Shown here in pieces: positions 43,434 to 51,618 of a DNA stretch of 64,000 bases. The translations under genes were made by a program, and so were the position numbers. The DNA comes from Escherichia phage Sa157lw. The stretch's first letter is position 1. Every line of letters begins with the position of its first letter. Where the stretch lies: the sequence record OK322699.1; one strand, written 5' to 3'. Under the pieces are notes generated by a model. That model was given only the letters and a program-made list of their open reading frames with translations, was not told the DNA's origin and made no database searches.

Positions 43434-43465
43434 AACAGAGGCTATAATGGCCTCTGTTTTTGTAT
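43434..43465 (+). terminator. terminator hairpin (ACAGAGGC-TATAATG-GCCTCTGT plus T-run)
   Basis: Perfect 8-bp stem followed by TTTTTGTATT. Confidence 0.55.
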
Positions 43466-43480
43466 TCTAGAGAGGATACC

Positions 43481-44704
43481 ATGAAAGATAAACCGTGTGA
43501 CATTCCTTATTGCGGTGTTCGGGAAACCAAAATTAAATCTGCACACCCCACGTTAAGTCCATTCCATAAACAACTCGCATACGAATGGATGAGCGAGCGC
43601 TATAAGATCCACGTGAGAAAGGACGTCCAACGTCTTCCTGCTCCTTGGACGGATAATCCCATACTACGGCAGGTCAAGTTCTGTAACGTCCGGAGAGAGC
43701 ACGACAGGCAGTCTCTTAACCTGATCAACAATATCGTCAAGAACGATGCTCTGGGCATTGCCGACAAGATGTTCAACTGTGTTCTGTTCCGCATGTTCAA
43801 CCTCTGGGACCCGATCAAGGCTATCGGTGACGCTCGTACTATCAAAGAGTTCGCAAACATCGATCTTGATGCAACCCGCAAAAGTCTTCAGGAATTTGAG
43901 GCCAACGGTGGTAAGATCTTCACCAATGCCTTCAACACAGGCGGTCTAAAGCAGTGTCTGGCGTTCCCCGAACTCGTTGTCAACCACAAGGAGCAGCGCT
44001 TTGGTGGTATGATGGTTAAGGTACACCGTGTTGGCCAGGGTATCGTTGATGAATTGGATTACAAGGTCGCCAAGAAGCTGGTTGAAGAAAATCCTGGGGA
44101 GTACACGATCGAGGGCTGGGAGCCGTACATGCCGATGCGTGTTATCCGTTCCCTGAAGGCATTTGTCAACAAGTATCCTGATTATTTCAATGATCTTTTA
44201 CGTCTTGACTCTCCGCTGAAAGTTTACCAGCGCATGTATGACGACATTGAAGGGCTTGGGCCATTCCTGGCATATCAGATATGGGTGGACTTCACATACA
44301 TCCCTGAGTATCCATTCAGTGAGAATCACTTCACCATCGCTGGCCCAGGTTGCCGTGCGGGTATTGACCTGATGTTCCTGGATAAGGACGGTATGACTCA
44401 TGAAGAGTGCATCTTCTGGGTTCGAGATCACCAGTATCAATTGTTTGCCCAGTATGGTTATGTCCAAGAGCAGTTCTGGTCAGCCGAAGCGCCGGAAGAT
44501 CAGTGCATGAATGTCATGCAGCTGGAGAACATGTTCTGTGAATTGAGCAAGTACACCCGCTGTGTTGAGGCCATTGAGAGAGGGGAAAAGCCACGCGGCA
44601 AGGTCGGTTACGATGGAGGCGGAGAATACAAAAAGCGGTGCGATGAAGTTGTCCTCAAACGCGGTTCCGTCAATTTGTTAGATCGTTTGAAGAAACCTGA
44701 ATAA
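43481..44704 (+). CDS. hypothetical protein (407 aa), Cys-containing N-terminus
   Basis: ATG 43481 with GAGAGGA SD; KPCDIPYCGV N-terminus; no family recognised. Confidence 0.45.
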   Translation: MKDKPCDIPYCGVRETKIKSAHPTLSPFHKQLAYEWMSERYKIHVRKDVQRLPAPWTDNPILRQVKFCNVRREHDRQSLNLINNIVKNDALGIADKMFNCVLFRMFNLWDPIKAIGDARTIKEFANIDLDATRKSLQEFEANGGKIFTNAFNTGGLKQCLAFPELVVNHKEQRFGGMMVKVHRVGQGIVDELDYKVAKKLVEENPGEYTIEGWEPYMPMRVIRSLKAFVNKYPDYFNDLLRLDSPLKVYQRMYDDIEGLGPFLAYQIWVDFTYIPEYPFSENHFTIAGPGCRAGIDLMFLDKDGMTHEECIFWVRDHQYQLFAQYGYVQEQFWSAEAPEDQCMNVMQLENMFCELSKYTRCVEAIERGEKPRGKVGYDGGGEYKKRCDEVVLKRGSVNLLDRLKKPE

Positions 44705-48925: not shown

Positions 48926-51142
48926 ATGATTGAATCATTAACATTTAAAAATGCGGTAGCAACCGTCGCGCCGTCTAACCATGTAATCGTTGTGGATATC
49001 TCCGGTTCCATGTACCGTTCACTTCCTGAAGTTCGCAAGCATCTGAAGGAAAATCTCCCGTCTCTGGTTAAACCAGAAGATACCGTCAGCATTCTTTACT
49101 TTTCATCCCGTGGTGATTTCGGTACGGTATTCGCTGGCCGTCAGATCAATAGCGCGACCGATCTCAGTGAAATCAATAAACTGATTGACCGCTTCCTGCA
49201 ACCGTCCGGTTGTACGGGATTTGTAGAACCTCTGAAGTTGGCTGCTGAAACCGCGTTGAGCCTGAACAAACCTGGTTATGTCAATAACCTGGCGTTCATG
49301 ACCGACGGCTATGACAACTGCTGGCGCTCTAATGAAATTCTGGCAGCAGCTGAAGTACTGCCCAAGGCGTTCGATAATATTACATTCATCGAATATGGCT
49401 GGTATTGTAACCGCGAACTTCTGGCTCTGATGTCCGAGCGTTCTGGCGCGACTCACGTGTTTGCCGAAGGTCAGACTGAATATCAGACCGAACTGGAAAA
49501 CGTACTGAAATCATCTACGCCGAAAGTGGTTGTTGATGTTCCCCTGGTTTACACTCATGCCATCTACGTTGAAAACGGCGTGGCAACTGTGCTAGCCGTA
49601 CAACCCGATGAAGAACACCCGATTGGCCACGTCAGCATCCCTGAAAGCGTTTCTCAGCTGTGGGTTGTAAACCCTAACATGATCGACCAGCTGGATAATC
49701 TGGCAGACACCCAGGCGGCATACGTGCTGGCATTCTATGGCGTGTACACCATGGACGCCGATCTGGTCTGGGCCGCGCTGAAGAAGACGGGTGACGTCCG
49801 CTTCATCAAACAATACAGCAACTGTTTCACCAAGCAGGACTATTCCAACATCAAAGTCGATCTGACCCAGGCTATCGTGGATGAAACTCTACGCGGCGTA
49901 GATGGCATCGATTACAATATGGTTCCAGCTGAAGATGCAACGACCATTGTTGATGTCTTGACCTACCTGGCCGAAGCCGATGTCTCTGTTGTCACTAAGC
50001 ATCCATTGTTCTCTTACAACAGCATCGGTCGCGGCACTGTGCAGAAAGTTGATGACACTGAAGACAAGCTGGCTGAACAAATCGCCGAAGCCAAAACCAA
50101 AGCAGAGCGTAAAGCGCTGGCTCTCAAACTGGCTGAGCACGAAGATTGGACACCGGAATTTACTCCGGTTGATGACAAAGGGATTGTCCCAATTAGCAAT
50201 CTGGTCTACAATTCAGAGCGCCCTAACATCAGCATTCAGACCGTTCAGCATGGGACGGTTGTTGTGCCGGAGTTCGTACAGAAGAAATATGAACTCCCTG
50301 AAGAACTGGGAACCTGGCGTTATCGTAATTACACCATCGTCAAAGATGGAATCATCAACCTGAAGACGATGCCGATTACTGCCGAATCTCCGATTGTCCG
50401 AGCTAAGGTTGTCCAAGATTTGATCGCCATGGGCGTTAATGTATTTGGTGGACCGGAAATCTTCATCGTTAATTTAGAAAGCGTTCCGATGGTCAACCGC
50501 GCCATGACCAAGAACATCAGTGCTGCCGAATTCTTCGCTGACAACGTTCGTCGCGAAGCGCTGAAGGCAAAACAGAAAGTTCTGAAATTCTATCGTGATG
50601 AACTGGTTGGCAAAGGCAATGCAACTGGTCTGGCTTCTAAATATGGTAAAGAAGCCGCCGATTTCTTGTCGGCAAATGGCATTCGCGACTACGGGTTCTC
50701 GCCGAAAACTACTTCTGTGGAATCAACCGATGTCTACATGAGCCGTGAGCTGAATGTGAAAATCAAAGGTGCTTCGTCGCTGCCGAGCATTGCGTCAGTT
50801 ATCAAAAAGCAAGCAGATGGTAAAAAACTGAATGTCGCTGATCAGTTGATTGCCAATGCTTTGGCCGAATACGACGCTTTTGTTAAATCGCCAATGATCA
50901 CCAGCGTACCTGAAGAGACTCAGAAAAAGCTGATTGAAAGCTGGATCGGAGACGCAGCAAAAGCGGCCATTAACGAAGTCCGCGCCCTGAACAAAACTCT
51001 GTCTAAAGTAGTTTACGGCATCGTCGCTGGTCATGGTTGGTTCACTGATTTGGATCTGGAAGAGTCTACGATGGATGTAGAAGTTGATGGGGTGAAATAC
51101 ACCGTCACTGCCGAACTGGCCGAAAAAGAAATCAAAATCTAA
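48926..51142 (+). CDS. von Willebrand factor A (VWA) domain protein (738 aa)
   Basis: N-terminal VVVDISGSM (MIDAS DxSxS) followed by VWA-like topology; long C-terminal region of unknown function. Confidence 0.6.
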   Translation: MIESLTFKNAVATVAPSNHVIVVDISGSMYRSLPEVRKHLKENLPSLVKPEDTVSILYFSSRGDFGTVFAGRQINSATDLSEINKLIDRFLQPSGCTGFVEPLKLAAETALSLNKPGYVNNLAFMTDGYDNCWRSNEILAAAEVLPKAFDNITFIEYGWYCNRELLALMSERSGATHVFAEGQTEYQTELENVLKSSTPKVVVDVPLVYTHAIYVENGVATVLAVQPDEEHPIGHVSIPESVSQLWVVNPNMIDQLDNLADTQAAYVLAFYGVYTMDADLVWAALKKTGDVRFIKQYSNCFTKQDYSNIKVDLTQAIVDETLRGVDGIDYNMVPAEDATTIVDVLTYLAEADVSVVTKHPLFSYNSIGRGTVQKVDDTEDKLAEQIAEAKTKAERKALALKLAEHEDWTPEFTPVDDKGIVPISNLVYNSERPNISIQTVQHGTVVVPEFVQKKYELPEELGTWRYRNYTIVKDGIINLKTMPITAESPIVRAKVVQDLIAMGVNVFGGPEIFIVNLESVPMVNRAMTKNISAAEFFADNVRREALKAKQKVLKFYRDELVGKGNATGLASKYGKEAADFLSANGIRDYGFSPKTTSVESTDVYMSRELNVKIKGASSLPSIASVIKKQADGKKLNVADQLIANALAEYDAFVKSPMITSVPEETQKKLIESWIGDAAKAAINEVRALNKTLSKVVYGIVAGHGWFTDLDLEESTMDVEVDGVKYTVTAELAEKEIKI

Positions 51143-51150
51143 ATCTAATT

Positions 51151-51175
51151 GGCGGGGAAACCCGCCTTTACTTTC
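51151..51175 (+). terminator. terminator hairpin (GGCGGG-GAAA-CCCGCC plus T-rich tail)
   Basis: Perfect stem with GAAA tetraloop after VWA gene stop. Confidence 0.5.
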
Positions 51176-51186
51176 AGGAAATGAAT

Positions 51187-51498
51187 ATGAGCAACAAACC
51201 GACTTATGTTGATGTCATGCGCGATTTGGCCCAATACGCATGTGACAACCTGAACATGGAAACTTGGCGCGACGGCGATCATAAAGAAAAGTTCGATAAT
51301 ATCGACGACAACATCGATGCGTTGGCTCCTCTTCGGGCCAAGAGCGATCTCGGCGGTGATGATCTTGACATGATTGAACTCATCATGGAAGTTGAAGAAC
51401 AATATGATGTTGAAATCAGTGATGACTGGGTAGGCAAACATGGTGATGATCCCACGCTCGGCGAATTAGCTGAATTGGTAGTTGCCCTCAGCAAGTAA
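51187..51498 (+). CDS. acyl carrier protein-like protein with Ser-to-Asp at the phosphopantetheine site
   Basis: DLGGDDLDMIELIMEVEEQYDVEI aligns with E. coli ACP [24 protein letters not shown]; the conserved Ser is Asp (codon 51361-51363). Confidence 0.6.
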   Translation: MSNKPTYVDVMRDLAQYACDNLNMETWRDGDHKEKFDNIDDNIDALAPLRAKSDLGGDDLDMIELIMEVEEQYDVEISDDWVGKHGDDPTLGELAELVVALSK

Positions 51499-51506
51499 AC
51501 CAAAAG

Positions 51507-51538
51507 AATCCCCAATATTTATTGGGGATTTTTACTTT
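51507..51538 (+). terminator. rho-independent terminator (AATCCCCAAT-ATTT-ATTGGGGATT plus T-run)
   Basis: Perfect 10-bp stem after the ACP-like gene stop. Confidence 0.6.
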
Positions 51539-51618
51539 TAGGGGTTTACTTCTTCTAAAGAATATCCTATTATTCAATAACTGGCTAACGTGGGGTTGGC
51601 TAGAAAAGGAGATACAAA

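Follow-up and report, generated by a model that had tools for sequence, protein, structure and literature searches.

Introduction

Acyl carrier proteins (ACPs) are loaded with 4'-phosphopantetheine by AcpS/Sfp-type transferases, whose established chemistry needs an acceptor serine. In the AcpP protein of Escherichia coli and Salmonella this residue is Ser36, and helix II is the ACP surface that binds SpoT and the fatty acid synthesis enzymes (PMC3340395). Forms that lack the prosthetic group have been described in two settings: apo-ACP is growth inhibitory in E. coli through glycerol-3-phosphate acyltransferase (reviewed in PMC3896788), and the S99D and S99E variants of Drosophila mtACP have been used as "phosphomimetic" proteins that carry the negative charge of the holo-form (PMC6895606). 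The literature treats acpP genes of phages as auxiliary genes of lipid metabolism. Here we describe a small ACP-like gene of Escherichia phage Sa157lw (OK322699.1), analyzed within a 64,000-nucleotide stretch of that record (the window), whose product has aspartate at the serine position. Hundreds of records, and papers on the ViI family of phages, label the gene "acyl carrier protein"; in the literature we found neither a comment on the serine's absence nor a functional study, and no study of phage ACPs with Asp or Glu substitutions.

Results

An earlier inspection of the DNA (the sequence-only reading) had proposed that the protein is an ACP homologue in which Asp replaces the phosphopantetheinylated Ser, leaving it unable to accept the cofactor, and had asked whether orthologs keep Asp or Ser. 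The replacement was confirmed. Asp59 lies within the motif GGDDLD and opens predicted helix II (DSSP helix 59-73), as Ser36 opens helix II of AcpP. Among 50 clusters of long-form relatives the site was occupied by Glu in 42, by Asp in 8, and by Ser in none, and it was likewise Asp or Glu in an alignment of 20 Ackermannviridae proteins. The two acidic residues are exchanged even between close relatives, such as P0024 (Asp) and P0178 (Glu), which are 93% identical. This exchange, together with the acidic residue in 50 of 50 clusters, rules out both a strain variant and an error of sequencing. The family alignment contained no alternative conserved Ser; Ser53 of the Sa157lw protein is Glu, Lys, or His in relatives. 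With Asp in place of the attachment Ser, loading with 4'-phosphopantetheine or an acyl thioester appears very unlikely, in agreement with the original proposal. Moreover, since only Asp or Glu occurs across the family and the two interchange at 93% identity, the acidic replacement itself, more than mere loss of Ser, is under selection.

Homology to ACPs was also borne out. The Pfam PP-binding profile PF00550 (clan CL0314) matched residues 53 to 98 at 30.5 bits, above the gathering cut-off of 20.8 (E=4.5e-7), and phrog_4154, the "acyl carrier protein" family of the Ackermannviridae, matched the entire protein (residues 1 to 103 on profile positions 1 to 108 of 108; E=4e-55). A profile of the family retrieved 89 matches from the sequences of the PDB (best E ~5e-8); the 60 listed were all ACPs or the ACP subunits of complex I (ACPM/SDAP/NDUFAB1), and the alignments shown set GGDeLD against GxDSLD. 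By BLASTP, residues 54 to 84 were identical to E. coli AcpP residues 32 to 62 at 16 of 31 positions. The right-turn four-helix carrier-protein fold is assigned to the protein by a confident prediction. The NCBIfam equivalog models of AcpP itself (TIGR00517/PRK00982) gave at best 33.4 bits, below their cut-off of 70.45, and the remaining NCBIfam ACP models gave 13 to 32 bits and did not reach their cut-offs of 66 to 146.

The sequence-only reading had seen an N-terminal extension of ~45 amino acids. This part of the protein is more likely a helix in the position of ACP helix I (residues 7 to 21), followed by a variable internal insertion of ~25 amino acids before helix II, with short predicted helices at residues 25 to 28, 33 to 37, and 39 to 46. 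The loop of the W81/GDDPT region is 3 to 4 residues longer than in AcpP. We expressed the conservation of each segment as the mean pairwise identity among 14 long-form proteins. Between the extremes of the loop-I insertion and helix II (Table 1) lay helix I (0.37), the stretch before helix II (0.41), helix IV (0.43), and loop II with helix III (0.59). The acidic docking residues of AcpP, D35, D38, E41, E47, E48, and D56, correspond to D58, D61, E64, E70, E71, and D79, and all are kept; D58, L60, D61, E64, M67, E70, and E71 are invariant across the Ackermannviridae. The docking helix is under selection. The whole protein is acidic, with a pI of 4.05 and 27 Asp/Glu residues against 9 Lys/Arg.

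The gene as a whole diverges faster than its neighbors. In comparison with three distant relatives the ACP-like protein was 36, 49, and 60% identical, whereas the upstream protein with a VWA domain was 76 to 79% and the product of a downstream 149-amino-acid gene 77 to 85% identical. By this measure the ACP-like gene behaves as a fast-evolving accessory gene. A second possible ATG lies at 51181, six bases 5' of the annotated start. We favor the start at 51187 because of the spacing to the AGGA (Table 1) and because relatives begin with MSK or MSN, equivalent to Met at 51187. That the protein is made is shown by the reported retrieval of one of its peptides in the virion proteome of phage Sajous1 (PMC10892097).

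Table 1. Features of the ACP-like gene and its surroundings in the window
Feature	Position	Strand	Remarks
ACP-like coding sequence	51187..51498	+	103 amino acids plus stop; Escherichia phage Sa157lw, OK322699.1
Helix in the position of ACP helix I, residues 7-21	51205..51249	+	Predicted
Loop-I insertion, residues 22-46, family specific	51250..51324	+	Most variable segment, mean pairwise identity 0.20
Helix II, "recognition helix," residues 58-74, DDLDMIELIMEVEEQYD	51358..51408	+	Most conserved segment, 0.60
Codon GAT, Asp59, at the position of the phosphopantetheinylated Ser	51361..51363	+	Asp or Glu in 50/50 family clusters
Loop II, helix III, and conserved motif W81-x-G83...G-D-D-P-T, residues 75-90	51409..51456	+	
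Shine-Dalgarno-like AGGA	51176..51179	+	Spacing 7 nucleotides to ATG 51187, but 1 nucleotide to 51181
VWA protein, 738 amino acids, N-terminal VWA domain, intact MIDAS (D-I-S-G-S ... T ... D)	48926..51142	+	Candidate partner
GC-rich hairpin GGCGGG-GAAA-CCCGCC	51151..51166	+	Between the VWA stop codon and the ACP-like ribosome-binding site
Terminator-like hairpin and T-run	51507..51540	+	Directly 3' of the stop codon; conserved in distant relatives

Acidic forms were found well beyond the Ackermannviridae. A profile search of 1.84 billion representative sequences returned 637 matches at an E value of <=0.001. Of the top 150, 104 were single-domain proteins, and in these the site was Ser in 74, Glu in 19, and Asp in 11, a tally biased to Asp and Glu because the query has Glu there. 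When the site column was masked, the nearest relative of many acidic forms was a Ser form. On a neighbor-joining tree of ~80 aligned columns, Fitch parsimony gave 23 changes at the site versus 58 for shuffled labels, a count that overstates independent origins and serves only to call the forms polyphyletic. Judged in this way, acidic forms are polyphyletic among Ser-containing ACPs. Individual cases bear this out: the Glu form P0262, encoded on a Streptomyces bacillaris chromosome, shares 74% identity with E. coli AcpP versus 52% with the nearest acidic form; its gene stands alone between an EF-Tu-like gene and one for an extracytoplasmic function sigma factor.

Bacterial proteins with the motif GxD(E/D)LD were P0230, P0195, P0097, P0130, P0147, P0172, P0068, P0127, P0152, P0166, P0200, and P0262. 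Many acidic forms of cellular origin carry an N-terminal signal peptide, in many cases together with the Cys of a lipobox. Those with a signal peptide look like exported or lipoprotein-anchored ACP folds that are free of cofactor; once exported, such proteins would never meet coenzyme A or AcpS. We know of no description of exported acidic ACP-like proteins of bacteria.

Glu forms of canonical length were also present in contigs of unrelated phages, beside genes for ThyX and HNH proteins, for YqaJ and RdgC, or for a T4-type portal protein and SbcC, and no VWA gene was found near them within ~10 to 14 kb of flanking sequence. At two such loci the gene after the short Glu form (L007, 6294-6890; L013, 5390-6184) overlaps its stop codon by 4 nucleotides, which suggests translational coupling. 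The coupled products, of 198 amino acids with a Cys/His-rich C terminus and of 264 amino acids, respectively, have no obvious mutual similarity by eye. When P0027, P0030, and P0040 were each scanned against viral contigs, the matches were only weak or partial.

The serine is kept in the ACPs of the cultured phages ICP1, P-HM1, Harreka_1, phiRSL1, Bajun, phiXF1, R6L, PhiXhv-12, and ctuI7215. Such phage ACPs, too, have small orphan genes, which carry the annotation "acyl carrier protein" and are regarded in the literature as auxiliary metabolic genes. They retain GxDSLD, and the phosphopantetheinyl transferase (PPTase) of the host could in principle load them, whereas the Ackermannviridae family never has Ser. 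Vibrio phage 277E43-1 (L028, coding sequence P0098) has Asn at the site (LGFDNLD) in an N-terminal ACP-like domain; P0098 is annotated at ~177 amino acids, of which the first 115 residues were read. On its sequence, this Asn form is a third kind of phage ACP-like protein that would not be loadable.

Genomic context

Over the 3 kb around the ACP-like gene the window shares 99.6% identity with Kuttervirus phages of Salmonella (Ackermannviridae, ViI-like) such as GEC_vB_GOT, N6, and SeF3a, and tblastn found the gene in 269 phage records, all of Ackermannviridae and of several genera. Genes for the sliding clamp, the clamp loader, RegA, a 5-hydroxymethyl-deoxyuridine (5-hmdU) DNA kinase (PF18723), several unknowns, and the VWA protein precede it; small unknown genes, spanin/endolysin, helicase, RNase H, late sigma factor, and SbcCD genes follow. 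Among the 240 annotated features of SeF3a there was no PPTase, Fab enzyme, acyltransferase, or ligase, although that annotation is PHROG based and divergent enzymes could escape it. The same annotation contained no AAA+ partner for the VWA protein. The kinase gene, at 43460-44704 of the window, encodes a homologue of ViI gp67 (4e-83), consistent with phage DNA modified with 5-(2-aminoethoxy)methyl-dU.

Between the VWA gene (~740 amino acids) and the ACP-like gene the spacing is 40 to 44 nucleotides in the window and in the related loci L005, L006, and L009, and in all of these the metal ion-dependent adhesion site (MIDAS; DxSxS...T...D) of the VWA protein is intact. An intergenic stem of differing sequence occupies the place of the window's GC-rich hairpin in L005 (1852-1891), L006 (5157-5197), and L009 (5960-6000). 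The terminator-like hairpin and T-run behind the ACP-like gene probably end the transcription unit. As far as 51610 the window holds a promoter-like TTTAC-N17-TATTAT with "TATTCAATAAC(T)GG" and then a hairpin before the next gene, an arrangement conserved in L005, L006, and L009. Rfam returned nothing above threshold for the flanking hairpins, and we found no Kuttervirus transcriptome in the literature.

The remaining ~550 residues of the VWA protein matched no Pfam family, and phmmer found no match to it among PDB sequences; depending on the record it is named "magnesium chelatase" or "minor tail protein." Homologues that are 48% identical occur in Straboviridae of ~175 kb (Pseudotevenvirus Lw1 gp114, Klebsiella phage PMBT1, and others). 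In Lw1 the VWA homologue is followed by an unrelated 205-amino-acid gene, and no Pseudotevenvirus appeared among the matches listed and genus counts of tblastn searches with the window protein and with the short form of the Serratia phage Miltonvirus KNP4. KNP4, also of the Ackermannviridae, encodes a short ACP-like protein of 90 amino acids (L021, 5570-5842) with Glu at the Ser site (NFDELD) and with neither the loop insertion nor the W/GDDPT motif. Its gene lies ~880 bp downstream of the VWA gene, with three small open reading frames between.

Discussion

We regard it as secure that the Sa157lw protein has a predicted carrier-protein fold that is not loadable, and that the docking helix and the acidic replacement are under selection. 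The protein would most likely act by binding other proteins. As to how, we tentatively prefer, as possible rather than probable, dead-end competition with AcpP for its docking site on one client protein of the host or a few of them. As a pseudo-carrier, an ACP fold without 4'-phosphopantetheine, it would bring no acyl or aminoacyl cargo to a partner. Its carboxylate (Asp or Glu) would be set where holo-ACP bears the phosphodiester, and the acidic face of helices II and III would dock on basic patches of partner enzymes. The candidate targets during infection would be PlsB, AcpS/AcpH, the Lpx and Fab enzymes, SpoT, and MukB, and the outcome would be that host lipid and envelope synthesis, or AcpP-dependent regulation, is dampened or rewired. 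The loop-I insertion and the W81/GDDPT loop may add affinity or target specificity. The predicted fold, the serine loss, the acidic replacement throughout the family, the conserved docking face, and the lack of carrier enzymes in the annotation of a nearly identical genome come from the sequences and their annotation; binding to host AcpP clients, and its consequence, we infer.

We favor dead-end competition because the conserved surface is canonical and host-like, because the phage brings no carrier enzymes of its own, and because the gene is a fast-evolving accessory gene. The growth inhibition by apo-ACP (PMC3896788) and the ability of Asp or Glu to reproduce the charge of the holo-form (PMC6895606) argue in the same direction, as does the recurrence of polyphyletic acidic forms, also in phage contigs with no VWA neighbor. 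The sequence-only reading had likewise suggested a mimic of apo-ACP or acyl-ACP. The docking surface, with its residues kept and helix II the best-conserved segment, agrees with that idea but does not prove it; the acidic residue is a doubtful mark of mimicry, since it also occurs in exported forms of lipoprotein type, and proteins with a signal peptide or lipobox are no decoys of cytoplasmic enzymes.

Further points weigh against the competition that we propose. Host AcpP ranks among the most abundant proteins of the cell, at 0.25% of soluble protein (PMC3896788), and a simple competitor would therefore need very high expression or a much higher affinity. In a fold free of cofactor, the carboxylate may do no more than stabilize the N terminus of helix II or serve to bind metal. 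Since many ACPs of phages retain the Ser, a decoy role need not be general for phage ACP-like genes, and in most relatives the gene is tightly linked to that for the VWA/MIDAS protein. Finally, the literature yielded no report of an interaction or phenotype of the ACP-like protein.

The VWA linkage leads to another explanation. In integrin-type VWA domains, acidic residues of the ligand complete the metal coordination of the MIDAS, and the ACP-like protein could be a partner or ligand of the phage VWA protein, with Asp59 or Glu completing the coordination and the pair acting together. An acidic side chain is the one feature invariably selected, the MIDAS is intact in the window and three relatives, and the short spacing is kept among them although ACP-like identity is only 36 to 60%. 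However, adjacency is weak evidence where the synteny of the whole region is conserved, and a hairpin separates the genes. The far slower divergence of the VWA protein is unlike that of a tightly co-evolving pair. Nor are the two genes adjacent in every case: the KNP4 Glu form is removed from the VWA gene by three small open reading frames, the VWA homologue of Lw1 adjoins an unrelated gene in a genus absent from the tblastn matches listed, and unrelated phage contigs have Glu forms with no VWA gene in the flanks covered. We consider such a partnership unlikely, though a main rival of the competition reading. A second rival, also rather unlikely, is that a cofactor-free ACP scaffold has been reused outside the circle of ACP clients, for instance as a divalent-cation-binding protein or as a chaperone or adaptor subunit for a phage or host protein. 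Asp or Glu would then be selected only as a stabilizer of the fold in the absence of phosphate, by helix dipole or capping effects or at ACP metal site A. The repeated rise of acidic forms among exported bacterial ACP-like lipoproteins, where ACP clients are absent, fits such reuse, as does the family's own conserved W81/GDDPT surface, absent from AcpP. Yet conservation is strongest on the canonical docking helix, and every acidic contact of the AcpP type is kept, which would be needless for an unrelated interface; nor does the evidence indicate a candidate partner.

LysW-type amino-group carriers hold their cargo on a carboxylate, and the ACP-like protein might be a genuine carrier by non-canonical chemistry, with cargo on the Asp/Glu carboxylate or another residue and perhaps feeding thymidine hypermodification. 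We know of no precedent for cargo at this position of the ACP fold, which counts against the idea, and the genome annotation contains no ligase, transferase, or PPTase. The 5-(2-aminoethoxy)methyl-dU of ViI DNA is indeed made from serine (PMC8989533), but the ViI pathway was reconstituted with a kinase, a serine:DNA transferase, a pyridoxal phosphate-dependent decarboxylase, and free serine, with a carrier protein unmentioned. We thus reject the link to hypermodification suggested by the nearby 5-hmdU DNA kinase and hold any carrier function to be very improbable. A decaying acpP remnant or an annotation artifact with no function is scarcely credible. Scores that fall well short of the NCBIfam ACP equivalog cut-offs and divergence faster than that of the neighbors would suit a dead gene, but the open reading frame is intact and of constant length in the 269 records from several genera and in relatives down to ~36% identity, some of its residues are invariant and its fold is predicted with confidence, a ribosome-binding site and a terminator of its own are retained, and its peptide was found in the Sajous1 virion proteome (PMC10892097). 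The family-wide Asp/Glu and this conservation effectively refute a pseudogene.

More than 260 sequenced Ackermannviridae phages carry the gene, and many of these phages have been proposed for biocontrol or therapy. A lipid-boosting auxiliary metabolic role cannot fit this family, since the defining Ser is absent in every member, and the annotation should read "ACP-like, lacks phosphopantetheine attachment Ser." The recurrent, polyphyletic change from Ser to Asp or Glu is a general route to a stable cofactor-free ACP fold, one that apparently has not been described. If it proves to be a decoy, the protein would amount to a natural, evolution-optimized inhibitor of an essential and druggable bacterial hub, and it would point to the AcpP interaction that repays attack by a phage. 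We give a modest chance to the wider idea that phages have repeatedly turned a captured acpP into a non-loadable "holo-ACP look-alike" that inhibits or hijacks a specific host AcpP client. Examples would be PlsB or Lpx enzymes, stopping envelope synthesis; SpoT, blunting the stringent response; and MukB, disabling chromosome condensation. Such proteins would form a convergent, previously unrecognized class of host takeover that has been misannotated as auxiliary metabolic "acyl carrier proteins."

Comparison with known systems

AcpP of E. coli and Salmonella differs from the phage protein in having Ser36 where the latter has Asp59 and its relatives Glu. In the phage protein the insertion separates helix I from helix II, and the loop before helix IV, with W81 and GDDPT, is longer; its gene is carried by a lytic phage with no fab or PPTase context. 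Apo-ACP shares the missing prosthetic group but is a transient cellular species. Engineered ACPs with Ser-to-Asp or Ser-to-Glu substitutions are laboratory constructs, whereas in the phage family the acidic residue is natural and fixed. The accessory subunits mt-SAF32, ATPTT11, and NDUEG11, listed as ACP-fold components of large complexes, are eukaryotic and organellar, and the likeness is one of fold only. PADLOC matched the phage protein to no family of defense or anti-defense proteins. With Ocr and gp5.9 it has in common that these are small, very acidic phage proteins that fill a site at which a host macromolecule binds, as is proposed here for the ACP-like protein; Ocr and gp5.9 mimic DNA, whereas the ACP-like protein would mimic a host protein cofactor of which it is a true homologue.
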